Assembly (NCBI GenBank): GCA_964383365.1
Contig: CAYLHF010000012.1
Span: 8,745 to 72,744, forward strand
Direction of reading: 5' to 3'
DNA: 64,000 nucleotides
From: an uncultured Rhodothermales bacterium
GTDB taxonomy: Bacteria > Bacteroidota > Rhodothermia > Rhodothermales > UBA10348
Shown here: positions 42,484 to 60,721 of the stretch, piece after piece
How the letters are laid out: each line of letters begins with the position of its first letter
How positions within the stretch are numbered: position 1 is the stretch's first letter
Position numbers and translations under genes: made by a program
Notes under the pieces: model-generated
Told to the model about the DNA's origin: nothing
The model's input: the letters and a program-made list of their open reading frames with translations, nothing else
Databases searched by the model: none

Positions 42484-43485
42484 TCAAAACAGATCGATTT
42501 GACCGTTGATATGCAGGTCTTTACCAATGATCTCCATGTTGGCATTTACGACACGCGGATGGCATCCATTGCACGTAGTGACCTGAAGGTGTCCCTTCGG
42601 CGGTAGATCGTGGCACGTTCCGCACGCGGCCTGACCGCTTCCGACCTCCGTCCACTTCATCACCAGATGATTGCCTTCTATCTGCGGCGCGATATAAATA
42701 CCCGGGGCTGCACTGTCGGCCTTCTTGAATTCAAAATTTCCATGACAGTATACATTACTGCACGTATTGGCGACCGGATCATAGACCGGTGTAAGCGTGC
42801 CATTTGCCGTTGCGAACGAACTGAACAGAAGATCCGCACTCGGGGGACCACCATCCGTATGTCCCTCGGAAGAATACCGTTCTGGCTTGTTGTGACAGTG
42901 GCTGCACTCGGGATTCAGAATATTGGTCAGATCGCTTCCACCCATATGCGTCTGATGAGCCCCGACGCCCGGTGAGGTCGTTGAAATATTTCCACGCAGA
43001 TCTTCGGGAGGGGCAATACTTCCATCACTTCCGTGACAGGTCGTGCACGCTTCCGGGCCATCCACGTCCGTATGACACGTGAGACAACTCTTACCGTCCG
43101 TGCCATTTCCTGCATAATCGCTACCGTGGCAATTCTGACACACGGTAAGATCCCAGTGAACCTGATCCGCAACAGCCTGCGTGTGGAGATTGAGCCCCAG
43201 TGTGTCTGCAAACGCGGCAGGGTGTGGAAATACGCTGTGACATCCTGACGACTGACAGCTCACGCCGGCTACTGACCCTGAAAAGTCGTCGCCGTGACAC
43301 GTTGCGCAGGTCTCGGTCTTACCCGGAGTTTCCAGTACGAATTGACCGTGGAACGTCGACGATTGCGGATCGGCCCAGCCCGCCGGGTGCGTCGTAACGT
43401 CCGGGGGTTGAGCTGGATCGCTGCATGCGACAACGGTGATTGCCGCGAGAAAAAATAGAAAACCGCAAAAAAACCACTGCTTCAT
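42484..43485 (-). CDS. Multiheme c-type cytochrome lipoprotein (7 CxxCH + 2 CxxxxCH), OmcB-position of a porin-cytochrome triad
   Basis: The lipobox is AAITVVAC-S. Heme motifs are CATCH, CQSSGCH, CQNCH, CLTCH, CTTCH, CSHCH, CSNVYCH, CGTCH and CNGCH. The paired CxxxxCH...CxxCH arrangement recalls the Geobacter C4xCH/C2xCH domain. Confidence 0.8.
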   Translation of the reverse strand: MKQWFFCGFLFFLAAITVVACSDPAQPPDVTTHPAGWADPQSSTFHGQFVLETPGKTETCATCHGDDFSGSVAGVSCQSSGCHSVFPHPAAFADTLGLNLHTQAVADQVHWDLTVCQNCHGSDYAGNGTDGKSCLTCHTDVDGPEACTTCHGSDGSIAPPEDLRGNISTTSPGVGAHQTHMGGSDLTNILNPECSHCHNKPERYSSEGHTDGGPPSADLLFSSFATANGTLTPVYDPVANTCSNVYCHGNFEFKKADSAAPGIYIAPQIEGNHLVMKWTEVGSGQAACGTCHDLPPKGHLQVTTCNGCHPRVVNANMEIIGKDLHINGQIDLF

Positions 43486-43497
43486 AGTCTAATCAAT

Positions 43498-44463
43498 CTA
43501 CAGGGTAGAGTCGTGACACGTACCGCAGACCACGTCTGCATCATCCACGTGACATGACATACAGGTCTGAATATCATTAAGTGCCTCCAACCGGTGACGT
43601 CCTCCGTCGCCTTCGATGCGATTTACCCATCCCGGTGTGTGGCTGTGGGGCATCACCAGGTTTTGTGTGTGACACTCGGCGCAAAACGTCAAGTCGCTGT
43701 GGCAACTCTGGCACGTGACTTCCGCTGACTGTGCCTCCAGCGCATGCGTGAACTCCCAGTTGAGTGGGTGCGTACGTTCATCTATGTTCTCACTCTCATG
43801 GCAGTCCTGGCAGAAGTCGTCCTGATGACATGTCTGGCATGTCTTCTCACCATCGATCAGATTGGCATCGAATCGCGAGAGATCAGCATGAACTCTCCTG
43901 AAATCACCGTCATGACTCGGTGGCTTCAGTCGGTCCGTACCCAGATGACACGTCTGACACGTTACGGATACGGAACGATCCTCATGGCAGTCAAGGCAGG
44001 CCACCATCGAAGGCAACACGATAGGATCAACTTCCGTCTTCTCCGGCATCACGGCATGGCATGTTACACATGACAGTTCCGCCGTGAGATGTCTGTTGTG
44101 AGAAAATTTCTTGTTATAATCGACGATTCTGATCAACTCTACCGGAGCATCGCCGTTTTCGTGACACTGTACACAGTTGTCTGGATCCTCCACCTCATGA
44201 CAGTCCTCGCATGTCTCATGATCGGGGATCAGGTTGTCTGCCCCTGTTTCACTGTCTTCGGCGCTATCATGACAATCCAGACACTCCAATTCTTCCTGAA
44301 TAACGTGCCGCTCGTGTGAGAAGGTGAGGTTTTCTATCGGTGTGTTCTGGACGGAATCCGGTTGGATAAAATCAGACACGTCCGGCTGCAATAAAAAGAA
44401 CCCGACAATCAAGATGACGGCCCCCGGCAGCAACAGACGATTCAAGTCAAGATTCGATCTCAT
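43498..44463 (-). CDS. Dodecaheme c-type cytochrome (12 CxxCH), periplasmic/membrane-anchored
   Basis: It has an N-terminal hydrophobic anchor (LLLPGAVILIVGFFLL) and 12 CxxCH motifs: CLDCH, CEDCH, CVQCH, CVTCH, CLDCH, CQTCH x2, CQDCH, CQSCH, CAECH, CMSCH and CGTCH. Confidence 0.85.
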   Translation of the reverse strand: MRSNLDLNRLLLPGAVILIVGFFLLQPDVSDFIQPDSVQNTPIENLTFSHERHVIQEELECLDCHDSAEDSETGADNLIPDHETCEDCHEVEDPDNCVQCHENGDAPVELIRIVDYNKKFSHNRHLTAELSCVTCHAVMPEKTEVDPIVLPSMVACLDCHEDRSVSVTCQTCHLGTDRLKPPSHDGDFRRVHADLSRFDANLIDGEKTCQTCHQDDFCQDCHESENIDERTHPLNWEFTHALEAQSAEVTCQSCHSDLTFCAECHTQNLVMPHSHTPGWVNRIEGDGGRHRLEALNDIQTCMSCHVDDADVVCGTCHDSTL

Positions 44464-44493
44464 AGTAATAAATTAAAATCAGTGCGGGCCTGT

Positions 44494-45687
44494 TTATCTA
44501 AGCGCGTAACTGAGGCGAAGAAGCAATCTGGTATCGCTGGTGAAGTAAGAATTAGCTGTCTGCTGTACTCTCGCGTCAAATAACACATTCGAAACAGGCC
44601 TGTATTTGAAACCGCCTGAGAATGATGTAGCGTCCTCATTAAACGAGAGACTGCGCCTCTCGTAGCTGTAGTAGCTGCTGCGAATATTGACCTCAAAAGA
44701 ACGGGTAAGCGGGTACTTGAGGTCTCCGAAGACACCGGTATTATCCCCTCCAAACCCGGTCTTGTATACGAACCCTGCCGTCCCATACCGTGTGTCGGCC
44801 GAAATAAATACCTCATCGGTCGTGGATGTCTCTTTAAAACTCGTATGGACATATCGCACACCCAATTGAGCTGTCTTCGATCTCCACGACGCCCCGATAC
44901 GGAATTGATCTGCAGCCACGAGTTCAAAGAAATTGAAAAACGAATCTTCGAATACTCTCGGCTTCTGGCTATTGTACTCTGCCGAAATGGCCCATTTATC
45001 GGGACGATAGGTCAATCGATAACGCATGCGCTGGATGGTGGAAGCCTTCAGGTTGTATTCCAATTGAGCCTGATAAAACACATTCGACAACCACGTCCCT
45101 GCAATACCGGCACCCGCCTGCTGCCACGCATTCTGTCTTCCACTACGACGATTGATGAAACTGACGTCCAGTCGTGGACCACCGGAAGACGGTCGATATT
45201 CGGAATAAAACCCGATCAGACCGGCATCATCATACGACTGGACCGCAAGCGAGCGATTCCACGCAACCCGAGTCCCGCCGATTACCTGAACACTCCACTC
45301 CGGACGAGGCCTGAACGCCATCGATAGCCCGTCGAAGGAGCCCGAAAGTACGCCCCGATACAGGAACTGCCGACCCAGTCGGGAGACGAGTTTCCCGGAC
45401 GAACTTCGGTAATTCGCATACGCACTGTAAACGCGCTCCGTCCAGTCTCCAGGATCTCCCCGTCGGGCGATTCGGAAATTGGTCTTCAGCGTGAGTCTGG
45501 AGTTGGACGGTCTAACGCGGACATTAAACCCCTGAAAATAGTCCCATTGCTGATTCGACGATGCATTCTCGAGTCCATAAAGCATCGAATACACCTGGCC
45601 GTCTACGCGAGCCTGGCCACGTGCGCTTCCGAACTCCGAGAACAGCAAAAATAAAACCAGGATACCGCACAGAAGCGATCTACTCAT
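44494..45687 (-). CDS. Outer-membrane beta-barrel (porin-like) protein
   Basis: It has a signal peptide (LVLFLLFSEFGSARGQ), alternating hydrophobic/polar strands rich in Y/R/S/G throughout and no Cys. At 397 aa the size is compatible with a medium-sized barrel. It sits between cytochrome genes. Confidence 0.6.
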   Translation of the reverse strand: MSRSLLCGILVLFLLFSEFGSARGQARVDGQVYSMLYGLENASSNQQWDYFQGFNVRVRPSNSRLTLKTNFRIARRGDPGDWTERVYSAYANYRSSSGKLVSRLGRQFLYRGVLSGSFDGLSMAFRPRPEWSVQVIGGTRVAWNRSLAVQSYDDAGLIGFYSEYRPSSGGPRLDVSFINRRSGRQNAWQQAGAGIAGTWLSNVFYQAQLEYNLKASTIQRMRYRLTYRPDKWAISAEYNSQKPRVFEDSFFNFFELVAADQFRIGASWRSKTAQLGVRYVHTSFKETSTTDEVFISADTRYGTAGFVYKTGFGGDNTGVFGDLKYPLTRSFEVNIRSSYYSYERRSLSFNEDATSFSGGFKYRPVSNVLFDARVQQTANSYFTSDTRLLLRLSYALR

Positions 45688-45777
45688 GACTCACAGGCGA
45701 TTACGAATGATCATACGATCCGACCAAGAATATCAGATCTGTCGGACGAAATTCCTAATTCAGATCACCGCTCAACG

Positions 45778-46401
45778 CTACTTACCGGCCAATATTTCGG
45801 CTTTCGTAGCTTCCGGGATCGGATGGGCGATTTTGGCTTTAGCTTCCTCAAAGTTGAATCCTTTGAAAGCGGGGCTTTCGTCATTATGACAGGTGAGACA
45901 GGTAGCCTCATCAGGGATCTTGAGACCAACCGACTCGGGAGTAATCTCTCCCTTGACGAGTGCAATCATCGTCTTCTTTTTGTAGTAATTCTGTCCAGCA
46001 TTATGGCAGGATTCACAGCCTACGCCGTCCTCCATTTTGTATTTCTTTCCCAGAAATTCCGGATCGACACCGTAGCCAGTTACATGACATTTCAGACACG
46101 CTGGATCTTCCTGAGGACTGTCTATGCCGACAGCGGCACCGTATTCCTTCGCCTTGTCTCCCGCCAGGGTTTCATAGGCCTTCGCGTGGGCTGTTTTCTG
46201 CCAGATTCCGTACTGCTCACCCTGTTCCACTTTTTTGTGACAGGTCTTGCATTTTGCAACGCCCTGATACACGGCTTGATCGATTCCAACCAGGTCGAAC
46301 TGTCCATTATTTTGAACGACGCTCGACCTCATGGCCGTGTTCATGAATGAAAACCCGACGATCACGACCATCAGAAAAACACCGGTGATCTCCCGCTTCA
46401 T
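45778..46401 (-). CDS. Tetraheme c-type cytochrome (cytochrome c554-like family)
   Basis: It has an N-terminal anchor and 4 CxxCH motifs (CKTCH, CLKCH, CESCH, CLTCH). The spacing and the GVGCESCHNAGQNY context are as in c554-type proteins. Confidence 0.75.
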   Translation of the reverse strand: MKREITGVFLMVVIVGFSFMNTAMRSSVVQNNGQFDLVGIDQAVYQGVAKCKTCHKKVEQGEQYGIWQKTAHAKAYETLAGDKAKEYGAAVGIDSPQEDPACLKCHVTGYGVDPEFLGKKYKMEDGVGCESCHNAGQNYYKKKTMIALVKGEITPESVGLKIPDEATCLTCHNDESPAFKGFNFEEAKAKIAHPIPEATKAEILAGK

Positions 46402-46526
46402 TATTCTACCTCTAATTCCTTTGTAACGTTAGCCTATCCAGGCGAATATCTTTCGTTTGAAGGGTATCGCAGAATGTTCAGAGTATCAAATAGATCGGTC
46501 CTATTCGCGACATTTCATTACAAGAT

Positions 46527-46799
46527 TCATTCCGAATCTACATTCTCGGAGCGTCCCTTTACAAATTCGCGCCGCAAACCGACGAAGACATAGGTCAGTA
46601 CACTGGCTAATCCTAAAAATACGGGAACTGCTACAAGACTGATACCGATGCTCGCACCCAATGCGTCCTGATATCGGAGCGACAGAGATACCAGATTTAT
46701 CATCCAGATCGTTATTCCTCCGACGAAAAACCAGATCGCTGAGACGCTCGCTACCTGTAAAATGAAAATGAAAGGGGTATTTGGATCTGTTTTCTTCAT
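46527..46799 (-). CDS. Small two-TM membrane protein, ActD-position subunit of the quinone-module
   Basis: The 90-aa protein has two hydrophobic helices. Its start overlaps the NrfD-like gene stop by 4 nt (46796-46799). I recognise no family. Confidence 0.5.
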   Translation of the reverse strand: MKKTDPNTPFIFILQVASVSAIWFFVGGITIWMINLVSLSLRYQDALGASIGISLVAVPVFLGLASVLTYVFVGLRREFVKGRSENVDSE

Positions 46800-48127
46800 G
46801 ACACATCGGGTAGATAACTTTCAATTCTTTCGGATACTTCTTCCACACTTTCATCGCGACCTTCCTCTATTTCCCATACAGAAATCAGAGGGAAGACCTT
46901 GGAGAACAGCAAGAATCCGAGCATAAATACGGCAACGGCACCTGCGAACAGAGACCACTCGACGAGAGACGGGAGATAAGATCCTATGGGTAGATCCACT
47001 CTCGGGTTTGCGAGTGACGGAACTACGATGATAAATCGTTCCAACCACATCCCGATCACTACCGTGATGGAAGCGATCAGAATACCGGGAATCGTCTTGA
47101 GTTTCTTGAACGAGAGTATCGTCACGGGAATGATGAAATTGCACACCACCATCGCCCAAAAGTACACCGCAAATGGACCGGTAAATTTGTACCAGATAAT
47201 ATCCATTTCATGGGGCTCATTACCGAATACGCCTGTCAGGAATTCTGAGAACGTAAAGTAGAACCACAGGATCGACATGATGAGCAACAGACGACTCAAA
47301 TAATCGAAATGGATGAATTTCAGATACGCTTCGAAGTGATAGAGCTTCCGGAAAAATATCATCACGATCAGAAGGGCGGCAATTCCCGAGAAGATTGCTC
47401 CCACAACGAAATACGGTCCGAATATCGTACTGTGCCATCCCGGTTGGAGCGTCATCGAGAAGATATACGAGATGATCGTATGTACCGAGACTGCGATGGG
47501 GATGACCATGACCATCAAAATACTGATCGCACGATCGAGGATTTTGTGCTGATGAGGTGTTCCGGTCCAGCCCCAGGCCATAAACGTATAGAGTTTATTC
47601 AGCCGACCTCCTCGATCCCGAAGTTTTGCAATATCAGGAATCATGGGCAGGTACAGATAGACTGTGCTTGCTGTAAAATATGCGGTAACACTGGTAACGT
47701 CCCAGAGAAGTGGCGACTGCAAACGACCGACCGTGAACAGGTTCAGCATTCGGTCGGGACGCCCGAGATCCAGGATCGGATGAAGCCCCCCGATGGCCAG
47801 TACAATCGCTGTGATGACTTCTGCCATCCTCGTAATCGGTCGCCTCCACTCGGCCTGAGACAGCCGTAGTATCGCGGATATCAGCGTACCCGCATGACTA
47901 ATTCCGATGAAGAACACGAAGTTTACGATGTAGAACCCCCATGTCACGGGTTCATTCATTCCTGTAACACCGAGTCCGTATCGGATCTGGGTAATATACA
48001 TGTAGAGTGCCCAGACGATTACCGCCACGAGCACCACAACCGAAATGTAGAATCCTCGTCCCGTCTCATAAATCGGCCGGTATAGCGCGGCATCGGTGCC
48101 ATAGTCCTTTTTCTGTGTTTCAGCCAT
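46796..48127 (-). CDS. NrfD/PsrC/ActC-type integral membrane quinone-interacting subunit
   Basis: The conserved N-terminal region is GLGVTGMNEPVTWGFYIVNFVFFIGISHAGTLISAILRLSQAEWRRPITRMAEV. About 10 TM helices are predicted. Confidence 0.85.
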   Translation of the reverse strand: MAETQKKDYGTDAALYRPIYETGRGFYISVVVLVAVIVWALYMYITQIRYGLGVTGMNEPVTWGFYIVNFVFFIGISHAGTLISAILRLSQAEWRRPITRMAEVITAIVLAIGGLHPILDLGRPDRMLNLFTVGRLQSPLLWDVTSVTAYFTASTVYLYLPMIPDIAKLRDRGGRLNKLYTFMAWGWTGTPHQHKILDRAISILMVMVIPIAVSVHTIISYIFSMTLQPGWHSTIFGPYFVVGAIFSGIAALLIVMIFFRKLYHFEAYLKFIHFDYLSRLLLIMSILWFYFTFSEFLTGVFGNEPHEMDIIWYKFTGPFAVYFWAMVVCNFIIPVTILSFKKLKTIPGILIASITVVIGMWLERFIIVVPSLANPRVDLPIGSYLPSLVEWSLFAGAVAVFMLGFLLFSKVFPLISVWEIEEGRDESVEEVSERIESYLPDVS

Positions 48128-48129
48128 GA

Positions 48130-48813
48130 TTATTCTTTCTCCGCGAGATAGTAGACTTTGGGTTCTGTGCCCAGGTCCTCCATAACCCGGAGGGCACGTG
48201 TGCTGTGGGAACGCTCATAGACCTTGCTACTCTTGTCGTCCAGATCTCCGAATGTGATGGCGTCGGCGGGGCAGCTTTCCGCGCAGGCAGGGACGTATTC
48301 ACCGTCACGTACCTCGCGATCCTCCAGTGCAGCCTGTTCACGCGCCTTGATCAGACGGTGAGCGCAGAACGAACACTTTTCAACGACGCCCTTCATCCGG
48401 AGAGATACATCTGGATTATGGGTGGCATCCTGTGCTTCATTCCACTCAGGTTCATACCAATTGAATGACTTCGCCGTGAACGGACACGCCGCCATACAAT
48501 AGCGACATCCTATACAGCGGTTATAGATCTGAGCTACGAGCCCTTCGTCGTTTATGTAGGTAGCGTGAACCGGGCAAACACGCGTACACGGTGGATTATC
48601 ACAGTGGAAACAAAGACGAGGCACTCGTTTGGCGCTCATATCAGGATAGTCCCCTTCGTAGGCGGTCGTCATGTCCATCCAGAACATGGCACGACTCGAA
48701 TTCGCCTCCTCCGGGCTGACCACGGCTACATTATTCTCGATTTTGCACGCCGCGACACAGTCGCCACAGCCGGTGCACTTATCGAGATCTATGACCATTC
48801 CCCATTTAGGCAT
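48130..48813 (-). CDS. 4Fe-4S ferredoxin-type iron-sulfur subunit (PsrB/NrfC/ActB2-like)
   Basis: MVIDLDKCTGCGDCVAACKIENN and further Cys clusters are present (CFHCDNPPCTRVCP, CIGCRYCMAACP, CSFCAHRL...CAESCP). Confidence 0.85.
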   Translation of the reverse strand: MPKWGMVIDLDKCTGCGDCVAACKIENNVAVVSPEEANSSRAMFWMDMTTAYEGDYPDMSAKRVPRLCFHCDNPPCTRVCPVHATYINDEGLVAQIYNRCIGCRYCMAACPFTAKSFNWYEPEWNEAQDATHNPDVSLRMKGVVEKCSFCAHRLIKAREQAALEDREVRDGEYVPACAESCPADAITFGDLDDKSSKVYERSHSTRALRVMEDLGTEPKVYYLAEKE

Positions 48814-48855
48814 TGTGTGATCCTCTCGATTGCTTGCTAGGGTTTTTCATTTTCG

Positions 48856-51219
48856 TCAGGCTCTTTTCTTGATGCGAACCAGCGTGGATTGCGTGGCCGG
48901 TGTTCCGCCGAGGCGATCATATATTCCGGCCATAATAGCGTTCGGATTCTCGCCAAATCCATCGGCGTTCTGTCCGAAATTAGTGTGCCCCATACCGAAT
49001 GGAATTGCGACCGTGTTCGGGACAATTCCCTCGTGAATTTTTGCTTGGACCCGAACGGCTCCCTGTCTGGACTCGATCCATACCCAGTCACCATCCTGAA
49101 TGTCATTGTCAGCAGCTGTGACGGGACTCATTTCGACCCAGGTGTTCCAGTAGCATCTTACTGCCTGGCCCATCATTTCCTGAAGCATGCGATCATTAGC
49201 ACCCCGTCCATCTCGGTGCGTGAGCGTCTGAAATGTGATTAGATTCAGGTCATACCCGTCGCTCTCTATCGTCTCACTATGGGCTCCAGTCTCCAGTAGA
49301 TGCGCTGTCGTAAGATCGTATTTCCTCGATGACGTGTGGAATACCGGCGGTTTCTCGTACCGGACGGAATCGGGATTCCACCAGCCGCCCCTGTCGACCA
49401 ATTTTTTCCAGAACGAATCGAAGGAGCGCTCTCTTCCGGGAGTATGATTCGGTCGCGACGAACGATCCGACCAGAATTCCCCCGCGCTCTCAGACGCAAT
49501 CATTCCGGTACCGGATTCGAAGAGACCCCGGGTTTGATTTTTGATGGTTTCCTTCAGCGTTTTATATGGGTACGCTGCAGATACAGAGTCATCAAGCCGA
49601 TTCGCGATGTCAATCAGTACATCGGCAGGGGTTCTTGACTCATAGAAAGGAGCAATAACCGGCTGTTGGACACCCACATACGACATGGGAACCGTGGGAA
49701 CAGAATCGACGACACCCCAGGACTCCAGAAACGTGCTTGCCGGGAGGATGAGATCAGCATTTGCATTCGTTTCGTTCTGGAATACGTCAAAACTCACTGT
49801 CAGGGGTGTATTTCGAAGCAACGACTCGAAATCGTGATGACGGATCGAAGAAAACAACGGATTCCCACCAAAAAGGAACAGCACACTGACCGGATACGGA
49901 TCCTGAGCGCCGGCGTTGTTGATGAGTTCATCCGGGCTGAAGGCAACTGCCGGATAATCGCCCTTGGTGGAGCGACCAATCGGCAGGGCCTTGATACCCT
50001 CCCTAGCAATAGAATCAGGTTTTACGCTGGCAAAGGATGCAAAGGGAACGTCAGATGGTCGAACGACTCCGCCCTTCTTTCCAAGATTTCCCAGGAGCAC
50101 ATTCAGAGCGTGGACGGCGAGTGCCCCGGTTGTACCGTCAGTCGTAGAACGTAGGCCCTGGTCGCCCAGAATAATGGCATGATCGGCATGTCCGACCTCG
50201 CGCGCAATCGACTCGATCGTCTCCGATGGAATCCCGGTAAGCTCACCGACTTTCGCGGGATGATACGAGTCCATTACGATGGATTTGAATCCAGCGTGTT
50301 TTACACCCCGAGCGTCTTTCCAATCGTCAAAACCAACGGTTCTTTTGTCGACAAAAGATGCGTCATACAAATTGTCACGAATCAACACATGGGCTATACC
50401 CAGCGCAAATGACGCATACGTCCCTGGTTTGATAGGGACCCATTGGTCAGCATTCGACGCAGACAGATTCAGCCTGGCGTCAGCATGTATGATTCGTGCC
50501 CTAGATCCATCTTCGCGGTCCCTGGAACGACTGAATACCTTCGTATGGTATACGGGAGCATATCCCTCTTCAAGGTAATTGGCGCCCACGCTCAGTATGA
50601 CATCTGCATTTCCTGTGTCGTATGCCGGTAACGTACGTGTCCCTTCTGCCATCTCATGCGCCGCACCGGCAAAAACATCGTCAGCAAATCGATAATAATT
50701 TGGCGATCCAAACGCCTGCATGAATCGGTCAATATGCTGCTGCTCAAACGCCGATTCGTCGGAGCCGAGACAGACCAATTCTTCCGTCCTTTTCTCTCGA
50801 CGAAGTGTTGAGAGAGCTTCGTTAATCATATTGAGCGCCTCGTCCCACGAGATCTCCTCCCAATGACCATCTCCAGGTGATCCTACATGTCTCACTGGCT
50901 GCTTCAAGCGATCGGGGTTGAAGAGCATTCCGATCGAACTTCGGCCGAGCGGGCAAATTCCTCCGAGACTGATCGGATTCATCGGATTACCTTTGACCAT
51001 TATCGGGACATCGTCTATGAGGCGCACAGACAATCCGCATCCCCCCGGACATCGCCGGCAGATGGTATTCTTCCATGTCTCAATCCCTTTTCCCCTCTTG
51101 ACCTGCTCGACGAGTTCGTCCGGCACATCGATCATTTCATCGATACCAAATCCACCGAGAGCAATCGCTCCCGACACACCGCCCAGCAATCTCAAAAATT
51201 CGCGTCGCTGTATCTTCAT
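48856..51219 (-). CDS. Tat-exported molybdopterin-oxidoreductase-family (CISM) large subunit, PsrA/QrcB/ActB1-like; substrate and cofactor status unknown
   Basis: It has the twin-arginine signal MKIQRREFLRLLGG and an N-terminal Cys group C54-x2-C57-x3-C61...C89 (ICRRCPGGCGL...GGICPLG), which is typical of the FS0 [4Fe-4S] site. The length and overall pattern fit the family. Confidence 0.75.
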   Translation of the reverse strand: MKIQRREFLRLLGGVSGAIALGGFGIDEMIDVPDELVEQVKRGKGIETWKNTICRRCPGGCGLSVRLIDDVPIMVKGNPMNPISLGGICPLGRSSIGMLFNPDRLKQPVRHVGSPGDGHWEEISWDEALNMINEALSTLRREKRTEELVCLGSDESAFEQQHIDRFMQAFGSPNYYRFADDVFAGAAHEMAEGTRTLPAYDTGNADVILSVGANYLEEGYAPVYHTKVFSRSRDREDGSRARIIHADARLNLSASNADQWVPIKPGTYASFALGIAHVLIRDNLYDASFVDKRTVGFDDWKDARGVKHAGFKSIVMDSYHPAKVGELTGIPSETIESIAREVGHADHAIILGDQGLRSTTDGTTGALAVHALNVLLGNLGKKGGVVRPSDVPFASFASVKPDSIAREGIKALPIGRSTKGDYPAVAFSPDELINNAGAQDPYPVSVLFLFGGNPLFSSIRHHDFESLLRNTPLTVSFDVFQNETNANADLILPASTFLESWGVVDSVPTVPMSYVGVQQPVIAPFYESRTPADVLIDIANRLDDSVSAAYPYKTLKETIKNQTRGLFESGTGMIASESAGEFWSDRSSRPNHTPGRERSFDSFWKKLVDRGGWWNPDSVRYEKPPVFHTSSRKYDLTTAHLLETGAHSETIESDGYDLNLITFQTLTHRDGRGANDRMLQEMMGQAVRCYWNTWVEMSPVTAADNDIQDGDWVWIESRQGAVRVQAKIHEGIVPNTVAIPFGMGHTNFGQNADGFGENPNAIMAGIYDRLGGTPATQSTLVRIKKRA

Positions 51220-51247
51220 TTGTACTCTCTCTGATAGAAGGTGAACC

Positions 51248-51766
51248 TCATCGGTGGCAGGAAAGACAGTCGGTTTTCGCTTCCAGTTTTCGATGACAGT
51301 CCAGACATGCGTCCATCGAAAGTGGATAAAATGGAACCTCCGCGGGGGCCGTTAACTCACCCACGGGACCGTGGCAATTGGAACATTCCAGGTCGCCCGA
51401 AACAACATGTCGGCGATGCGAAAAGTAGACATGGTCTGGAACGGAATACACTCGCTGCCAATCGATTTCGGAGCCTGCCTCGATATGGGCAATCAGTTTG
51501 GCTTCTTCTGCAGAATCATCGGCGAGTGGATCCGAGTCATGACAGTCCAGGCAGACTTCCAGGTCAGGGAGCGTCGCCCTCGGAGACTCTTCTACCCGTT
51601 GATGACAATCCGTGCACTCGAGACCTTCCCCTTCCACATGAATATTGTGATTGTAAGCGATCGGCTGCACGACCGGATCAGGGGACGCAAAAATTGTCAA
51701 TCGCAGTACAAACGCAATGAGTAGGAACGGAATAGCAAAGCCGAAGACCTTCATTAGGGAAGACAT
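51248..51766 (-). CDS. Membrane-anchored pentaheme c-type cytochrome (cytochrome c3/ActA/QrcA-like)
   Basis: It has an N-terminal TM helix (VFGFAIPFLLIAFVL) and 5 CxxCH motifs (CTDCH, CLDCH, CSNCH, CLDCH, CLSCH). It is the first gene of the Mo/FeS/NrfD module. Confidence 0.8.
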   Translation of the reverse strand: MSSLMKVFGFAIPFLLIAFVLRLTIFASPDPVVQPIAYNHNIHVEGEGLECTDCHQRVEESPRATLPDLEVCLDCHDSDPLADDSAEEAKLIAHIEAGSEIDWQRVYSVPDHVYFSHRRHVVSGDLECSNCHGPVGELTAPAEVPFYPLSMDACLDCHRKLEAKTDCLSCHR

Positions 51767-51810
51767 TTCTGTTCGATCCGGTAAGTGAACGAGAATCTGA
51801 TTATCGAATC

Positions 51811-51850
51811 TGACCGGGGCGCTACACGAACCCGCGCAGCGCCCCGGTCA
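51811..51850 (-). terminator. GC-rich 13-bp hairpin between the EB_dh-like gene and the pentaheme gene (possible partial terminator/processing site)
   Basis: tgaccggggcgct (51811-51823) pairs perfectly with agcgccccggtca (51838-51850) around a 14-nt loop. The hairpin lies 27 nt downstream of the stop at 51877 on the minus strand and has no clear U-tract. Confidence 0.4.
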
Positions 51851-51876
51851 AATCGTCACGTGAATGACACGAGGCT

Positions 51877-54006
51877 CTACTTCAGCAGAACCATCTGACG
51901 GGTCTCTACACTCTTCTGAGCCATCAGCTGGTAGAAGTAGATCCCGGAAGCCAAGCCTTCTCCGGAGAACTCAACCTCGTACCGACCCGGAACCATATCG
52001 CGATTTACGAGCGTCTTGACGAGACGACCAAGCGAATCGTAGACATTTAGCGCGACGTGTTCTGAGTTCGATACATTGAAACGGATTCTCGTAACAGGAT
52101 TAAACGGGTTGGGATAATTCTGTTCGAGATCATACGTCACTGGAATCTCATCCGTAGCAAGTTCCTCTACACCCGTAATGGTAGAGAAGTCCAGGGTGTA
52201 AATGGTTCCATCAATGCCGTCGTTTGGATGCTCGTGTCCTTCGTTGTCGAAGATCTCATGGGTGAAATCTACGGTCCCGCCCGGAACGACTGCGAAGTCA
52301 TGCTCCGTACCGGCGTAGGCACGTTTGAATTCGACGGTCCACACACCATTTTTATAGCTACTGGATGTGGTAACGGATGCTCTGTCTCCATCGGGTACTC
52401 GCATGACGTAACCGGGAATTGTACTACCATTTACCCAGGCGGCATTCGGATCGAACGTCGTGGCCATGGACACTGCCGCCGACGAGTGAGCCGTCATGGC
52501 CGTCATCGCGGCGGCGTCCATCCCGAGGAATACCGGGCTTTCTGCCGGCCCGTTGGCCGCCATGAATTGTGGATTTCCATTGGCATCGGCCCCGTTGTCG
52601 GAATAGGCGCTCGTACCGCTGTCTCCATGCATGGTATCTGTTCCAACCCATTTATCATCGACATATCCCAGCGCTGTTCCGCCGCGAGCGGCCTTCCAGT
52701 GCCAGTTGTCTACGACACCGTTATTGGTTCTCATCACACCGTCAAAATGGCACATGGTTGTACAATTGGCGCCGTCAGTGCCGTTAAGTCCCATGTCGAA
52801 GATGAGTCCGAATCTATCTTCGTCGCCGGATTGTGTCCAGGACGTGCCATCGTACGCCCAGAGATGTTTATTAATGGACTCCGTCCCGGACTTATCGACC
52901 CACTGTGCGGACAGGTAGAAATCGTTCCCGTCGGCCATGGCATTCATCGTGACGCCATTGGCAGTGATGAGCGGCTGCGAGGTCCACTCACCCGGAGTGA
53001 CCGTACCATCCATTACCGGTGCTCCGCTGCCAACTACCAATCGCGTTGATCCTGTCAGTTGAGCGAAATCAAGCGTGTAGATGGTCCCGTCAACTCCATC
53101 GTTGGGATGGCTCCCTCCTTCATTGTCGAAGATTTCGTGCGTGAATGCCACGCTCCTACCCGGTGTAACCGTGAAGTCACCCGGAGATCCTGCATAAGAA
53201 CGTTTGAATTCGACCGTCCATACTCCATTGTCAAAAGTCGCCCGAGAAAGAACCGAAGCTCTGTCGCCCGACGGCACCCGGTTGATATATCCGGGAATTT
53301 TGGCACCGGCCGCCCAACCGGCATTCGGATCAAACGGAACAGCTATGGCTGCTGGAAGTGAGGTGTTCGCCTGCGCCAGGTCCTGTGCTGCCTGATCTTG
53401 CGTCAGATACGTGACACTCGTTCCCGGTCCACCCGTCGGCATGAAACTCGGATTTCCATTCGAATCGGACCCATTATCGGCATATGCACTGACGCCAGCA
53501 TCTCCGTGAAAATTATCGGTCCGAACATTTTTGTCATCGACGTACCCCATCGCCACACCACCACGTGCAGCCTTCCAGTGCCAGTTATCAGCGATGCCTG
53601 TATTGGTTCTCATCAGGCCGTCGAAATGACACATGGTCGTGCAACTCGCGCCGTCTGCACCGTTGAGGCCCATGTCGAATATGAAACCAAACCGATCTTC
53701 ATTTCCCGTCTGACTCCACGCGGTTCCGTCGTACGTCCACAGGTGTTTGTCGACGCTCATGGTATTCGTTTTATCCGTCCACTGCACCGCGAGATACAGA
53801 TCGTTTCCGTCCCCCATCGCGTACATCGTCACGTTGTTTGCCGTAACCAGGGCCGGGCCCGTGTATTCTCCCGAAGAGATAACGCCATCGAGTGTCGCGC
53901 TCCCGGGTGTGGCCGTCAGCGTGGTCTGAGCACTGGCATCGACTGCCAGAGCTGCGACGAAAACGGCGAATAGAAGTTGTTGTATATGTCCTCTCATTTT
54001 AGGCAC
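51877..54006 (-). CDS. T9SS-sorted surface protein with two tandem EB_dh/DOMON-like putative heme-binding domains, each carrying a CTTMCH motif
   Basis: It has a signal peptide (LLFAVFVAALAVDASAQ). An internal duplication covers aa ~29-320 and ~321-612, and each copy contains EDRFG.IFDMGLNG.DGA.CTTMCHFDG.MRTN.G..DNWHWKAARGG..GYVDDK, which is the EB_dh-like W.WKA signature. The CTTMCH codons are at 53626-53643 and 52747-52764. The C-terminus LEQNYPNPFNPVTRIRFNV...GIYFYQLMAQKSVETRQMVLLK is a T9SS CTD. The GTG at 54006 and the ATG at 53997 are both possible starts. Confidence 0.7.
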   Translation of the reverse strand: MPKMRGHIQQLLFAVFVAALAVDASAQTTLTATPGSATLDGVISSGEYTGPALVTANNVTMYAMGDGNDLYLAVQWTDKTNTMSVDKHLWTYDGTAWSQTGNEDRFGFIFDMGLNGADGASCTTMCHFDGLMRTNTGIADNWHWKAARGGVAMGYVDDKNVRTDNFHGDAGVSAYADNGSDSNGNPSFMPTGGPGTSVTYLTQDQAAQDLAQANTSLPAAIAVPFDPNAGWAAGAKIPGYINRVPSGDRASVLSRATFDNGVWTVEFKRSYAGSPGDFTVTPGRSVAFTHEIFDNEGGSHPNDGVDGTIYTLDFAQLTGSTRLVVGSGAPVMDGTVTPGEWTSQPLITANGVTMNAMADGNDFYLSAQWVDKSGTESINKHLWAYDGTSWTQSGDEDRFGLIFDMGLNGTDGANCTTMCHFDGVMRTNNGVVDNWHWKAARGGTALGYVDDKWVGTDTMHGDSGTSAYSDNGADANGNPQFMAANGPAESPVFLGMDAAAMTAMTAHSSAAVSMATTFDPNAAWVNGSTIPGYVMRVPDGDRASVTTSSSYKNGVWTVEFKRAYAGTEHDFAVVPGGTVDFTHEIFDNEGHEHPNDGIDGTIYTLDFSTITGVEELATDEIPVTYDLEQNYPNPFNPVTRIRFNVSNSEHVALNVYDSLGRLVKTLVNRDMVPGRYEVEFSGEGLASGIYFYQLMAQKSVETRQMVLLK

Positions 54007-54387: not shown

Positions 54388-55602
54388 TTATGCTGCGCGC
54401 CGATCCGGCGAGGAAGGGCCACATCCTTCCACCCGGCGAAGGGTACTCTTTCTCCTGATATCGCTTGTTTTCCGCGAGACGAGGCGTTTCATATACGCCA
54501 TGATAGCCTCAGCCCCGCTGTGCCCGTGTGGATCTGATTCAATAACGGGAATACCCTCACGAATCCCCTCCAGATCGGCACCTATCGGACCCGATCCCGT
54601 GTTGACAATGGCGACAATGGGCACGCCGATCTCTTCGAGAATCTTCACACCTGTCGCCGCCGCGAGGGCCGTGGGAGCTAACAGTAAGACTCCTGATATT
54701 CCGGGGAGAGACGCCAGTTCGGTAAGAACGACCTGTGATTCGGTATTCAATATTCCGTCAGAAATCTGTCCGACAATCACGTCAGGCCGCGGAATGGAAG
54801 CATCTGTTATCAGCGTGTAAAATAGCTGAGCGACTTCTACAGGTCGTGCTCCCCGGGTCGAAGGGAATCCATATTCGGCGAGATCACGAACGCTCGTGGC
54901 CGAACTGGATAGCATTTCGTCCAGATCGGGTGAACTCATTTCTCCCGTCAGACGACACATGGAGGCCCGAACCTTGTGTTCGGCCAGATGATTCACGAGT
55001 CCCGCGCTGGATTCGGTCAGGCCCTTCTCTGTGTCTGTTCCCACGGTAAGGAAGATGGGCGGAAGCGCGACCCGATTACGTGCCGGTTCAAAAAAGAGAT
55101 TCTTCAGGTTGATTCTGGAGCCTGCCTCGTCCCCGAGCACACCGCGCAATACCACGCGTGTCGGTGTTTGCTCTATCGCGTCGGGCAGTCGTCCAACGAT
55201 CCCTTCTTCCGACCACATCTCAAAGAAGCCTTCATTGGTAATCGGGAGCCGTTTTCCGCTCTTCTCCTGTTGTCCGATAATACCGATAATTACGTCACCG
55301 ACATGGAGTCGCATCCAGGCGCTGCTCTTTGTTCGGACATGGGCGATGTCGCCTACCGAACCAACTTCGACAATAACGACATCTCCAGGCCTGAGCGGGG
55401 GACGGTTCTTAATGTCGAGTTGTTGAAAAAGTCGTTTACTCTGCAGACTGCGACACGCCCAACTCCACCGTGTTCTTCCAGTTGCGTTCACACAATTCTG
55501 ACTTTTAACCAGCGTTCGCCGATCCATCTCGGAAGCGGTCGTGCCGGAGGGGATCATGAATCGAGTCTGTGCAGTTACGAGTGGTAATGATTTGTTTGTC
55601 AT
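54388..55602 (-). CDS. Hypothetical protein (about 400 aa), no family confidently recognised
   Basis: This is a long, clean ORF co-directional with its neighbours. ATG 55602 is preceded by gagg, and the ORF track uses GTG 55635. Only faint resemblance to alpha/beta nucleotide-binding-type proteins is visible (IFLTVGTDTEKGLTES..., Gly-rich C-terminal half). Confidence 0.5.
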   Translation of the reverse strand: MTNKSLPLVTAQTRFMIPSGTTASEMDRRTLVKSQNCVNATGRTRWSWACRSLQSKRLFQQLDIKNRPPLRPGDVVIVEVGSVGDIAHVRTKSSAWMRLHVGDVIIGIIGQQEKSGKRLPITNEGFFEMWSEEGIVGRLPDAIEQTPTRVVLRGVLGDEAGSRINLKNLFFEPARNRVALPPIFLTVGTDTEKGLTESSAGLVNHLAEHKVRASMCRLTGEMSSPDLDEMLSSSATSVRDLAEYGFPSTRGARPVEVAQLFYTLITDASIPRPDVIVGQISDGILNTESQVVLTELASLPGISGVLLLAPTALAAATGVKILEEIGVPIVAIVNTGSGPIGADLEGIREGIPVIESDPHGHSGAEAIMAYMKRLVSRKTSDIRRKSTLRRVEGCGPSSPDRRAA

Positions 55603-55873
55603 GGTTCGCCTCGAAATATTGGGAACGCAATTCACTCCATGACGAACTTCATGCCAAAATAAATAATTTAATTATTTGTCCCTTTTCAGGCCCTTGTAGT
55701 TGTTTACAAGGATTTTACATACTTTTTATGTGACTCACTGACACACGGATTAACACCGCTTGTATCAACGATCTGTCTCAATGAAACAGCCGGGTGTACC
55801 GTCGACGGAGAGATTGCGGGAACGGACAGAGAACGAGCGTCCGTCCAAAGAAGTAGGACCGTTGAATCGGGGC

Positions 55874-57562
55874 TCAGACCTGATCCAGCTTGAACTCGGT
55901 CAGCCTGCGATAGAACGTCGCCCGAGATATGCCAAGCAATTTGGCGGCCGCTTTGCGGTTGCCCTCCGTGTGCCGAAGGGCCGCCAGGATACGATCACGC
56001 TCATCGTCGGGTAATCCGTCAGGAAGCAAATCGGCCGCCACCGACGTGCGAACCTCCGGCGGGAGCGAATTCGCCTCGATGATACTCCCGGGAGTATGAA
56101 TCATTGCGTATTCAATCGCATTGGCAAGTTCGCGCACGTTTCCCGGCCAATTGTACTCCAGCATGCAACGGACCGCCGATTCACCGAGTGTGTCAATTTC
56201 TACTCCTGATTTTGCCGATAGGCCACTCAGGAAGTGGTACGCAAGGAGTGGAATATCGCTTCTCCGTTCCCGGAGAGGAGGCAGCTCCAGGCGGGCGACT
56301 CGGATGCGGAATAACAGGTCCTGTCTGAAGGTCCCGTTCTCGACCTCGGTGGGAAGATGTCGGTGCGAAGCGGCAACAATACGAACATCTACCTTTCTTG
56401 CCTTGGTCTCACCGACACGCGTAACGGTTCGTTCCTCCAGGACGCGAAGCAGATTCACCTGAATATCCAACGGAATATCTCCAATCTCATCCAGGAACAA
56501 GGTTCCCCCGTTCGCAGCGCCAAAGTAGCCGGGTTCGTCCGAAATGGCACCGGTGAATGAGCCTCTCTTATGTCCGAAAAGCTGACTCGCTACCAGCGAC
56601 TCTGTGAGTGCACCGCAGTTCACTGCTACAAAGGGCTTGGATGCCCTGGCACTGGCATCGTGAATGGCACGAGCAACGAGTTCTTTTCCGGTCCCCGTCT
56701 CTCCCTCTATTAAGACAGTAGAATCGAAGCGTGCGGCCGACTTGATTTGATCAAAAATGCGATTCATCGGCTCACTGTCGCCGATAATGTCTCCGCCTTT
56801 GTTTTGTCGGGCCAGCTGTCGTCGGAGGTCATGGACCTTCGTAACATCGTAAAAAACGAACAAGCGCCGTCGCTTTTCCTGAGGATCTCTGCGGATGTCG
56901 AGTTCCATGTGATAGGATTGGCCGTGGTCGAGAGAAATCCTCGTAGGAATACGCGTCGACGTTCCGTCTTCAGAATCAAATTTAGCGCGTACGCGCGAGA
57001 TCGTCTCCGACTGAAAGGGCAGCACTCGATCCCACATAAGGCCCAGGGCATCAGACTCATTGATTCCGAGTAATCGTCGAGCTACCTGACTGACGAACAC
57101 GATTCTACCGTCCGCGTCCGTAATTACCGTCCCGATTCGGAGTCCGTCGAGCAGAAGCTGCAAATTATCCCGATCCCGGCGAAGTAGTCTGTGAGATCTG
57201 TATTTGGATAATGCAACCTCGATATTCGCACGTAACTCGCTCTCCTGAAACGGTTTGATCACATACCCGAATGGTCCGGTGGCGTTGGCTCTATTGAGCG
57301 TTTGTTCGTCTCCAAAAGCCGTGAGAAAAACAACAGGCACGTCTTGTGACTCCCTGATCAACTGCGCAGCTTCGATCCCATCCATCGTCCCTTCCAGATG
57401 GACATCCATGAGGATCAGGTCCGGCCGTAGAGCCGACGCTCGCCTGACGGCCTGCTCGCCTGAAACAACTTTATCGACCACCTGATACCCCAGCTGCTGC
57501 AGGTGGTATTCCAACTCCAGAGCGGTTATCGCTTCATCTTCAACTATCAGTACCTTTACCAC
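55874..57562 (-). CDS. Sigma-54-dependent response regulator (REC-PAS-AAA+-HTH, NtrC family)
   Basis: The REC domain is VLIVEDE...DLILMDVHL. The AAA+ sigma-54 interaction domain has GETGTGKELVARAIH, GHKRGSFTGA and LFLDEIGD. The C-terminal Fis-type HTH is NRKAAAKLLGISRATFYRRL. Confidence 0.9.
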   Translation of the reverse strand: MVKVLIVEDEAITALELEYHLQQLGYQVVDKVVSGEQAVRRASALRPDLILMDVHLEGTMDGIEAAQLIRESQDVPVVFLTAFGDEQTLNRANATGPFGYVIKPFQESELRANIEVALSKYRSHRLLRRDRDNLQLLLDGLRIGTVITDADGRIVFVSQVARRLLGINESDALGLMWDRVLPFQSETISRVRAKFDSEDGTSTRIPTRISLDHGQSYHMELDIRRDPQEKRRRLFVFYDVTKVHDLRRQLARQNKGGDIIGDSEPMNRIFDQIKSAARFDSTVLIEGETGTGKELVARAIHDASARASKPFVAVNCGALTESLVASQLFGHKRGSFTGAISDEPGYFGAANGGTLFLDEIGDIPLDIQVNLLRVLEERTVTRVGETKARKVDVRIVAASHRHLPTEVENGTFRQDLLFRIRVARLELPPLRERRSDIPLLAYHFLSGLSAKSGVEIDTLGESAVRCMLEYNWPGNVRELANAIEYAMIHTPGSIIEANSLPPEVRTSVAADLLPDGLPDDERDRILAALRHTEGNRKAAAKLLGISRATFYRRLTEFKLDQV

Positions 57563-60500: not shown

Positions 60501-60721
60501 GCGAGACCTTCTTCGGTGCCTAACCACAGATATCCGTTCGAAGATTGGATGAGGGCATGAACTGTATTCTGAGGTAGGCCTTCGTCGTACTGCCAGACAT
60601 CGTGTAAAAGCTGGGTGATGGCCTTCTGCGGATCCAGAGGTTGAAACAATCCTGTTGCCGACAGTCTTACGGGCTGGGTGAGACTGACGAGGGCGACGAC
60701 AGCAGATAAGACTTTATTCAT
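57587..60721 (-). CDS. Sensor histidine kinase with Reg_prop beta-propeller repeats, Y_Y_Y domain and HisKA_2-type transmitter
   Basis: Propeller repeats (DG.LWIGT..GL) are followed by YRYRLEGYEDVW, a TM helix (IFFWIIVGLLFSGAIAF), a coiled coil, LLREVHHRVKNNLQMISSLLRLQ (HisKA_2/HWE-like H-box) and an ATPase region (ELVSNALKHAF, DDGAG). It ends 24 nt upstream of the regulator gene. Confidence 0.85.
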   Translation of the reverse strand: MNKVLSAVVALVSLTQPVRLSATGLFQPLDPQKAITQLLHDVWQYDEGLPQNTVHALIQSSNGYLWLGTEEGLARFDGRTFTVYNGRNTLAFERGHNVLALKEGADGRIWIGTDGAGVLYYRDGVVQNYMPLTSFGSVRINDIELSSNGTLFLGTSKNGLLSCVQDVCTKFDTSKGLPGNLVQTIALSASDELWIGTDQGLAEMHVGADQAPHEIRSVSGSLVQELYIDREDRVWVGTHSGLMRIEGEHVRHLDPSNGWPEDVVWSIVEDGSGSIWLGLDHTGMARYHDGSMDTFTPEEGLSNGRVLSVMEDREGSLWIGTGGGGLNRLRDGAFTTWSEREGLVSNAVSTVFEDRAGAILVGTFGGGISKLVGSSLTSITTESGLPSNVVTSIAGAPNGAYWIGTVDAGLTLWKDRRIRSYTSTNGLASNAVYALYTSFDGRLWVGTDNGLSVIDGSSIRSYTTADGLSGNSVTAIAESPNGELWIGTYEDGLNLFNNGKFTSFTTDSGLGSNTISALYLDQDGTLWIGTYGGGLTRFKDNRFLTFGSREGLFDDKIFQILEDDNGNLWMGCNRGVFSVSKRDLDDVGRGAADRVGNAIYGTDDGLRTREVNGGVQPAGWRGSDGRLWFPTVSGVAVVNPTNLRRNETIPPVVIESVYLDDIRADLRKGVEVSPSVKRIEIAYAGLSLVDPNTVSYRYRLEGYEDVWVNADNETSATFTHLAPGTYTFELMASNNDGVWNREGASISFTVEPFFYQTIFFWIIVGLLFSGAIAFGHRVRVRSLRHRQKILEKEVTARTHDFETATDELQATTEELRDSLEQKDILLREVHHRVKNNLQMISSLLRLQSRQVSDDATKRLFDECRDRIYSISTIHERVYRSDNLAELDFDGYLRGITEQLLVSYDAQNRNILIQIQCPIHYMDVDRAISCGLILTELVSNALKHAFPDNSEGGTIKIRMEREQEFYRLTVSDDGAGLSDDYATHTEASLGLNLVRGLVSRLGGRFTIAETRKSGPQGARFDIIFPVVSIHGSVSEDEVRQKMGTH

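Follow-up and report, generated by a model that had tools for sequence, protein, structure and literature searches.

The locus described here raises the question whether a gene cluster that resembles a molybdenum-dependent reductase encodes an enzyme or a device for passing electrons on. It lies in a stretch of 64,000 nucleotides (nt) from an uncultured Rhodothermales bacterium (assembly GCA_964383365.1, contig CAYLHF010000012.1), which is called the window below. Six genes (45778-51766) code for a pentahaem cytochrome c, a large subunit of the molybdopterin family (B), an iron–sulfur (FeS) subunit, an NrfD-like membrane subunit, a small protein with two transmembrane helices (2-TM) and a tetrahaem cytochrome; genes for an outer-membrane barrel and further multihaem cytochromes follow (Table 1). 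The original prediction had described the six genes as a module resembling alternative complex III (ACIII) or Qrc, leaving a pure electron-transfer complex and a catalytic reductase as options. Every feature it gave for them was found again at the same coordinates on the minus strand, and chance is of no concern for the module, since the observation is one of gene content.

Of the two options, the tests performed favoured the electron-transfer complex. The genes probably encode an ACIII-like complex that connects the quinone pool with multihaem cytochromes, has a large subunit without cofactor and is likely to serve extracellular electron transfer (EET); such a complex would not reduce a soluble oxyanion. 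The option without cofactor is preferred because three active-site features of the large subunit (metal ligand, relay residue and PGTD Asp) are lost, because the subunit clusters with QrcB and a fused ActB, and because no TorD or molybdenum cofactor (Moco) genes lie nearby.

Large subunit and the molybdenum cofactor

The large subunit begins with a twin-arginine motif (MKIQRREFL), and its cysteines are C54, C57, C61, C89, C150 and C689. The first four, the FS0 group, had been listed in the original prediction, and the listing was exact on re-reading of the protein. The Pfam domains Molybdop_Fe4S4, Molybdopterin and Molydop_binding were detected. Among NCBIfam models, QrcB gave 309.5 bits (cut-off 440), PhsA 269 and ArrA 236, while ArrA itself matched with 203 bits, PsrA with 160 and the N-terminal domains of solved ActB proteins with 45-81. 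An AlphaFold2 (AF2) model with a predicted local distance difference test score (pLDDT) of 88 and a predicted TM-score (pTM) of 0.90 had the complete four-domain fold, and Foldseek yielded TM-scores of 0.79-0.80 to ArrA (6cz7) and 0.76-0.81 to PsrA.

The position of the metal ligand was determined with two aligners. HMMER aligned the ArrA ligand Cys193, the numbering of which was checked against the published H189-S190-…-C193-…-K198 string, to Ala184, and the PsrA ligand Cys173 to Phe183, both within FADDVFAGAAHEMA; with MAFFT, the ligand column fell at Val182 or a gap. The earlier remark that no Mo ligand was visible past residue ~170 was therefore borne out, with the exact residue (A184, F183 or V182) depending on the aligner. 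In 62 homologues, segment 176-189 was hypervariable and contained no conserved Cys, Ser or Asp, and across the clade of the large subunit it was shortened as well. Wherever a B protein is linked to a pentahaem gene, its ligand column varied or was occupied by a gap. D180 and D181 were considered as an Asp metal ligand and rejected, as their columns are not conserved and hold most commonly Ser and Ala/Leu.

Other conserved columns were evaluated against six reference enzymes: ArrA, PsrA, two ArxA, one DmsA-family protein and one FdhF. The ArxA, DmsA-family and FdhF sequences came from a tblastn search of plasmids, which found no close relative (best identity 27%). At least five of the six references shared 92 columns, defined by conservation among the references, and the family kept 52 of these (at 80% or more) and had lost 13. 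Besides the ligand, the losses included the PGTD Asp and the positions of ArrA R78, W342, A343 and E784. The PGTD Asp is replaced by Tyr268 in the window and by Tyr in 35/53 family members. Two residues past the fourth FS0 Cys, at the equivalent of ArrA R98, the window protein has L91 (C89-P-L91-G); all six references carry K/R there, and the clade of the window mostly L, S or M, with a few A or T. A Lys or Arg at this position is the electron relay from FS0 to the proximal pterin. The alignment proposed in the original prediction thus gave no conserved Mo ligand and, beyond that, revealed the loss of the FS0-to-pterin K/R and of the PGTD Asp.

The same three sites were degenerate in three relatives that pass the NCBI QrcB model (P0119, P0120 and P0101; 521-526 bits, cut-off 440), and QrcB is reported to contain no Mo/W-pterin (PMC6303296, PMC13059093). 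Paralogues from related loci served as internal controls. Those at L068 (1497-3896) and L067 (4558-7134) keep the K, the Cys and the Asp, and the former has no pentahaem gene in its locus and a TorD-like gene adjoining. A third control, L032 (17544-19733), keeps the R and the Asp, with its Cys one column off the ligand column, as in PsrA. Neither a TorD-type chaperone nor a Moco biosynthesis gene was found within the 64-kb window. Based on these residues and gene contents, the large subunit very probably carries no molybdenum or tungsten bis(pyranopterin guanine dinucleotide) (Mo/W-bisPGD).

The opposite case would be a working Mo/W-bisPGD enzyme that binds the metal without a protein ligand, like arsenite oxidase, or through an unusual one (D180/D181), acting as a reductase or oxidase of arsenic, selenium or sulfur compounds with the cytochromes as accessories. 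ArrA and PsrA are indeed its nearest catalytic relatives, and in both sequence and structure the large subunit matches the systems ArrAB (6CZ7) and PsrABC (2VPW), representing Arr/Arx and Psr/Phs, best; the Tat (twin-arginine translocation) signal, the FS0 motif with its invariant cysteines and the A-B-C gene order are shared with them, the predicted fold is complete in a confident model, and 52 of the 92 columns persist. The module nevertheless lacks the ligand Cys, the FS0-pterin K/R, the PGTD Asp and the chaperone of those systems, has a pentahaem subunit added, and in its NrfD subunit shares only 22% identity with ArxC. The ligand segment has changed beyond mere substitution, D180/D181 are unconserved, the relay has become Leu and the PGTD Asp Tyr, and this pattern recurs in the proteins passing the model of the reportedly cofactor-free QrcB. 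A TorD-like gene does follow the module in L056, one of 3 such genes in 87 loci, yet the B protein of L056 is also without the ligand; the paralogues with intact sites, which coexist in related loci, illustrate how a functional site of this lineage is built. A catalytic enzyme is accordingly held to be decidedly unlikely.

The distribution of the family was assessed by scanning the pattern PGT[YEM][GA]A[LF]ALG over GTDB species genomes. At least 576 relatives were confirmed, and the best 80 were all metagenome-assembled genomes (MAGs) from many phyla. Synteny was counted in 87 fetched loci (L numbers), and in 75-87 of them the A-B-C-D arrangement was found again. A neighbour-joining tree was calculated with 50 bootstraps and a single ActB, the fused form of a Gemmatimonadota MAG (L073). 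The family linked to pentahaem genes, strict QrcB and fused ActB formed one clade (98%), which was sister to Arr/Arx (86%), a placement that also counts in favour of the catalytic alternative. Within it, the clade of the window (Ignavibacteria, Bacteroidota, Rhodothermales, Caldithrix; 94%) joined KSB1/Fidelibacterota at 92%, and strict QrcB stood apart with 100% support. The tree called for in the original prediction thus placed the large subunit with QrcB and fused ActB, not inside Arr/Arx/Psr. The closest relatives of both the large subunit and the barrel came from Rhodothermales/Rhodothermia and Caldithrix/Calditrichaceae MAGs. A homologue search with P0119 for Desulfovibrio QrcB yielded only 60-87% relatives among the best 120; those with names belonged to Desulfobacteraceae, Desulfatiglans and unclassified Deltaproteobacteria/Thermodesulfobacteriota MAGs.

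Four Anaerolineae relatives from within the same superclade of the large subunit (L066 9995-12334, L078 9998-12319, L085 9896-12325 and L068 1497-3896) have no pentahaem gene, keep the relay Lys and carry Ser or Cys at the ligand column; in L068 and L085, a TorD-like gene follows. Judged by these residues, genuine Mo enzymes seem to be nested here among proteins without cofactor. Cofactor loss may have occurred more than once, or the neighbour-joining topology may be unreliable around them.

Members of the family are annotated as "molybdopterin-dependent oxidoreductase", "DmsA precursor" or "selenocysteine-containing dehydrogenase". With such labels, respiration of arsenate, selenate or sulfur is easily ascribed by mistake to MAGs of Ignavibacteria, Bacteroidota, Calditrichota, KSB1 and other groups. 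Joint degeneracy at ligand, relay and PGTD sites, together with linkage to a pentahaem gene, provides a simple rule for telling electron-transfer modules from true reductases.

Subunits compared with ACIII and Qrc

The remaining subunits were compared with the solved ACIII structures of R. marinus (6F0K), F. johnsoniae (6BTM) and R. castenholzii (6LOD) and with PDB 8K9E. The pentahaem cytochrome, with its transmembrane helix at residues 7-25, had the ActA chains 8k9e_A, 6btm_A, 6f0k_A and 6lod_A as best solved relatives (84-89 bits) and reached 96.8 bits on the NCBIfam QrcA model (cut-off 180). All 74 homologues scoring >100 bits contained five haem motifs.

The FeS subunit matched residues 797-1023 of R. 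marinus ActB with 201 bits, ArrB with 133 and PsrB with 111, and was about as close to a QrcC (243 bits); the NCBIfam QrcC model gave 286.1 bits (cut-off 400). All of its 16 cysteines were conserved in 77-79 of 79 homologues. Since this holds for Cys103 too, at a position where each of the four solved ActB chains has Thr, the prediction is four [4Fe-4S] clusters and not three plus one [3Fe-4S]. No signal peptide was found in the N-terminus of the subunit (MPKWGMVIDLDKC).

The NrfD subunit aligned over its full length with the ActC chains 8k9e_C, 6lod_C, 6f0k_C and 6btm_C (240-256 bits, 37-39% identity). It scored 36 bits on the NCBIfam QrcD model (cut-off 570), BLASTP against QrcD of the strict Qrc locus L011 aligned a patch of 109 residues only, and a search with it missed the NrfD genes of the strict Qrc loci L011, L087, L089 and L090 at E ≤ 1e-5. 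In R. marinus ActC, the quinol site on the P side involves H139, D169 and D253, and the pair E394-R395 is named besides (PMC8076601). Equivalents of D169, E394 and R395 were kept in 62/62 family members, in which H247 was invariant as well. The position of H139 is Asp in 60/62 members, the window copy included, and that of D253 is Ile, Val or Leu in 62/62 (Ile in the window copy). The family therefore appears to carry an altered quinone pocket.

The 2-TM protein had 38 distinct homologues adjoining the module, with the motif DAPGASVGISIVAIPVF..LTYVFVGLQK. Its profile found no Pfam family and nothing significant in the PDB (best E 0.022, a proton-gated ion channel). An identity with ActD was considered and rejected, since no ActD chain was among the 60 PDB matches listed and the channel and transporter matches were insignificant. 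The protein is best described as an additional membrane subunit that is particular to this clade and coupled in translation to NrfD. Its gene comes directly after the NrfD gene in the window, in Caldithrix, in KSB1 and in others. In an Ignavibacteria/Bacteroidota subgroup it lies ~1.2-1.8 kb upstream of the pentahaem gene and not after NrfD (L005 7968-8243, L012 7974-8246, L020, L021, L026-L028, L030, L032-L036, L040-L042, L047, L080).

With ACIII, the module shares a membrane-anchored pentahaem cytochrome, an FeS module, an NrfD subunit of about ten helices and a Tat-targeted part that resembles Mo enzymes and is predicted to lack the cofactor. Its B part is divided between two genes, a variant known as ActB1/ActB2 (PMC9386147). 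In contrast to ACIII, the large subunit is nearer to ArrA/PsrA than to the N-terminal domains of solved ActB, its FS0 motif matches that of true Mo enzymes, the FeS subunit has Cys103 in place of Thr and so four predicted [4Fe-4S] clusters, and the ActC residues H139 and D253 have become Asp and Ile. Neither ActD nor the monohaem ActE nor the second NrfD-like subunit ActF was present among the operon proteins and the window open reading frames (ORFs) scanned; the unrelated 2-TM protein and a c554-like tetrahaem cytochrome stand in their place.

These comparisons bear on the view that the module is an ordinary ACIII which feeds a terminal oxidase or periplasmic reductases, with the barrel and its cytochromes unrelated to it. 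The ActA-, ActB2- and ActC-like subunits, the known splitting of ActB, and the loci L005, L006 and L007, where the module adjoins Rieske/cytochrome b and NapC/NirT-type genes and no barrel occurs, would fit. Oxidase genes, however, neither adjoin the module nor occur elsewhere in the 64 kb, ActD, ActE and ActF are missing, Cys103 and the quinol-site signature (altered in 60-62 of 62 family members) depart from ACIII, and gaps of 12-125 nt on the same strand tie the module to the barrel-cytochrome genes. Locus L073 contains a canonical ACIII (ActA, a 1000-aa fused ActB, ActC and an ActF-like protein; 1923-9207) and, next to it, a split module (9274-14434). Because both occur side by side, the canonical ACIII and the split module are paralogous systems. 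An ordinary ACIII is regarded as highly improbable.

The resemblance to Qrc lies in an arrangement of four parts in which B and C are encoded separately, in QrcA, QrcB and QrcC as the best NCBIfam models of three subunits, in the ligand/relay/PGTD degeneracy and superclade shared with QrcB, and in a 16-Cys FeS subunit like QrcC of L011 and unlike solved ActB. The module could accordingly be read as an inward quinone reductase of the Qrc type, in which extracellular or periplasmic donors would reduce the cytochromes and the complex in turn menaquinone, electrogenically as in QrcABCD; candidate donors are Fe(II) through the barrel-cytochrome conduit, or H2 or formate through cytochromes. Fe(II) oxidisers also use porin-cytochrome conduits, and ACIII has been proposed as part of the EET conduit of neutrophilic Fe oxidisers (PMC5566968). 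Against this stand the scores, all four below the cut-off (QrcA 96.8/180, QrcB 309.5/440, QrcC 286.1/400, QrcD 36/570), a membrane subunit that is ActC-type and not QrcD-like, and a large subunit ~30% identical to strict QrcB, which falls in a clade of its own. The module has the additional 2-TM subunit and tetrahaem, its host is an FCB-group (Fibrobacteres–Chlorobi–Bacteroidetes) bacterium with a type IX secretion system (T9SS) and not a sulfate reducer of the Desulfobacterota, and the window contains no gene for a hydrogenase, formate dehydrogenase or cytochrome c3. Electron transfer from Fe(II) to menaquinone is, moreover, uphill. The inward reductase is considered unlikely.

The label "ACIII/Qrc-like" of the original prediction was therefore supported as a likeness, although the defining features tested set the module apart from both Qrc and canonical ACIII. 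From sequence comparison it appears to be a hybrid, with the pentahaem, FeS and NrfD subunits leaning towards ACIII and the large subunit grouping with QrcB and fused ActB. It represents an uncharacterised, widespread variant between the two. A comparable description in the literature is that of "ACIII-like" clusters in the candidate phylum MBNT15, which contain ActABCD-like proteins and a four-haem ActE-like protein and lie away from oxidase genes. In the proposal made for them, electrons from quinol reach periplasmic multihaem cytochromes and serve Fe(III) reduction (PMC9386147); these clusters are known only from genome description, and the likeness is one of description. Papers on Melioribacter describe a canonical ACIII and Psr/Ttr, not this module.

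Downstream cytochromes, barrel and proposed electron path

The module belongs to a head-to-tail row of ten minus-strand genes (42484-54006) with intergenic distances of −4 to 125 nt. The six genes named in the original prediction were right, but it missed the continuation of the operon into the barrel and cytochrome genes and the haem protein with T9SS signal, whose gene lies upstream of the pentahaem gene at a distance of 110 nt.

The tetrahaem protein matched PF13435 (3.4e-22). Where homologues occurred, they usually came straight after the module, and 27 of 38 copies had four haems. It is probably the partner at which electrons leave or enter, in the place of ActE. The barrel protein, a putative porin, had no Pfam hit itself; several of its homologues matched PF13609 (Porin_4). 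In its AF2 model (pLDDT 88.5), about 24 β-strands come after a signal helix, and Foldseek matched the model to outer-membrane barrels only (porins, and FimD/PapC usher pores with a query TM-score, TMq, of 0.5-0.6). In 12 loci, homologues with 12-14 haems followed the barrel gene, and the 12-haem protein is a candidate wire in the periplasm or within the barrel. The last cytochrome, with an N-terminus of ...VVACSD and a match to the GSu_C4xC__C2xCH domain, was found together with barrel and 12-haem protein in 10 loci and is a candidate surface cytochrome. An outer-membrane barrel gene flanked by the 12-haem cytochrome and a lipoprotein cytochrome with 7+2 motifs has the layout of a porin-cytochrome conduit. 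The likeness to Geobacter Pcc and Shewanella Mtr is one of layout and fold rather than of demonstrated sequence homology to MtrB or OmbB. Porin-cytochrome clusters have been described in Ignavibacteria (PMC7399161).

The protein encoded upstream matched the ethylbenzene-dehydrogenase γ/DOMON-like family EB_dh (2.6e-40) and Por_Secre_tail in Pfam and contains CTTMCH at C122 and C415. Strong homologues (625-995 bits) adjoin the module in L010/L044, L049, L043 and L077. The gene lies directly upstream of the pentahaem gene in a KSB1 MAG (L010/L044), an unclassified MAG (L049) and a Rhodothermales MAG (L077), and between the pentahaem and large-subunit genes in L043. The EB_dh proteins contain 2-3 repeats with one conserved C-x3-C-H motif each (CTTMCH, CLTMCH, CQAFCH, CGTMCH). 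This suggests haem c, covalently bound and displayed at the surface, although the fold is known to bind haem b without a covalent link.

The path of electrons can be proposed from homology to ACIII and Qrc. The complex would sit on the periplasmic face of the membrane, with quinol bound at the ActC-type NrfD subunit's periplasmic side. Electrons would pass through the four predicted [4Fe-4S] clusters of the FeS subunit and then the five haems of the membrane-anchored ActA-like cytochrome, leave to the c554-like tetrahaem cytochrome and continue by way of the 12-haem protein, barrel and lipoprotein cytochrome. The large subunit would act as a scaffold and as a Tat carrier for the FeS subunit, which would hitch-hike across the membrane, as it has no signal of its own while the large subunit has an RR motif. 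The likely role is that of an inner-membrane quinol oxidase in an EET route, for example for Fe(III) or Mn(IV) reduction, because the module is clustered, or co-transcribed, with the barrel, the 12-haem protein, the 9-motif lipoprotein cytochrome and the T9SS haem-domain protein. The same hardware could in principle run inwards.

Several findings do not sit easily with this proposal. The fold of the large subunit is intact, with a TM-score of about 0.8 to ArrA; E217 and D247, columns common to all reference Mo enzymes, are kept, and R249 is near-invariant in the family. In arsenite oxidase (AioA), Mo-bisPGD is bound with no ligand from the protein, and therefore loss of the ligand alone is no proof of cofactor loss. 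With two of the three named ActC quinol-site residues changed, quinone chemistry is probably not simply that of ACIII. Only in ~12/87 loci does the module occur together with the barrel and cytochromes, so the link to EET covers this genome and some relatives and not the family; a Caldithrix MAG (L024) has the whole gene order from A to I. C54, C57, C61 and C89 were invariant in 62/62 aligned relatives, which is surprising for a pure scaffold. The FS0 segment also resembles the FS0 domains of true Mo enzymes, with one match only, and a weak one, to solved ActB chains. The FS0 motif is likewise invariant in the relatives passing the QrcB model, and QrcB is described as having no redox cofactors in a 2026 paper (PMC13059093). 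One explanation is that FS0 has been kept as a structural or dead-end cluster, the other that the Desulfovibrio QrcB that was studied differs. In the large subunit, active-site residues have been lost from a scaffold that is itself preserved.

A further-reaching reading is put forward tentatively, as more doubtful than the EET complex itself. The module may represent a distinct respiratory family between molybdoenzymes, Qrc and ACIII, serving in FCB bacteria as the inner-membrane entry to a new EET route that ends in the T9SS EB_dh protein. Its markers would be a split, FS0-binding B protein, a wire of four [4Fe-4S] clusters, an ActC-type subunit with Asp/Ile at the quinone site, and the private 2-TM subunit; the EB_dh/DOMON-like end point would carry covalently bound haem, one CX3CH per repeat. 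Should the link to EET hold, metal respiration in the FCB group would have a candidate quinol oxidase in this module; for this group, no inner-membrane component was identified in the literature cited.

Regulatory genes and the wider window

The coordinates of the operon, the candidate regulators and the EB_dh homologues are collected in Table 1, together with the synteny counts.

Table 1. Genes of the operon and its surroundings, with the number of related loci (of 87) that contain a counterpart, and EB_dh homologues in related loci
Feature	Position	Strand	Length (aa)	Characteristics	Loci (of 87)
EB_dh/T9SS protein	51877-54006	−	709	two EB_dh repeats, T9SS C-terminal sorting domain	9
Pentahaem cytochrome c (A; ActA/QrcA-like)	51248-51766	−	172	5 CxxCH, one N-terminal transmembrane helix	78
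Large subunit (B, 'B1')	48856-51219	−	787	twin-arginine Tat motif, Mo-bisPGD family domains	87
FeS subunit (C, 'B2'; QrcC/ActB-C-terminus-like)	48130-48813	−	227	16 Cys, four ferredoxin-type groups	83
NrfD subunit (D; ActC-type)	46796-48127	−	443	about 10 transmembrane helices	75
2-TM subunit	46527-46799	−	90	4-nt overlap with NrfD stop	46
Tetrahaem c554-like cytochrome	45778-46401	−	207	4 CxxCH, Cytochrome_C554 family	35
Putative outer-membrane β-barrel	44494-45687	−	397	AF2 model and Foldseek; no Pfam hit	12
12-haem cytochrome c	43498-44463	−	321	12 CxxCH, N-terminal signal or anchor	12
Lipoprotein-like cytochrome c	42484-43485	−	333	7 CxxCH + CQSSGCH + CSNVYCH, lipobox-like N-terminus	10
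σ54-dependent response regulator	55874-57562	−		Pfam; candidate operon regulator	26
Reg_prop/Y_Y_Y histidine kinase	57587-60721	−		Pfam; candidate operon regulator	
TorD-like protein					3
EB_dh homologue, L010	6186-9293
EB_dh homologue, L043	5799-7919
EB_dh homologue, L049	6329-9334
EB_dh homologue, L077	7209-9335

The σ54-type response regulator of the window carries a PAS domain, and its counterparts in related loci lie mostly upstream of the module. A scan for the σ54 −24/−12 consensus before the operon gave 44 matches against 41.7 expected, none of them at the right place or strand, and a scan for σ70 promoters and terminators over 41.5-56 kb remained at chance level. Between the regulator and the EB_dh gene lies an ORF of 415 aa (54388-55635, minus strand) that matched nothing in Pfam or NCBIfam and had no homologue in the 87 related loci.

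At the other end of the window, the plus strand of 18-28103 contains T9SS-related genes, among them a PorV-like gene (7768-8877) and Por_Secre_tail cargo genes (18-1394 and 8890-10527); PorV and several T9SS cargo proteins assign the organism to the FCB group. Genes for polysaccharide biosynthesis (Wzy, WecG/TagA, glycosyltransferases, sugar transferase, sulfatase) are clustered in the same region, where another Reg_prop/Y_Y_Y histidine kinase, the second in the window, is encoded at 24861-28103.

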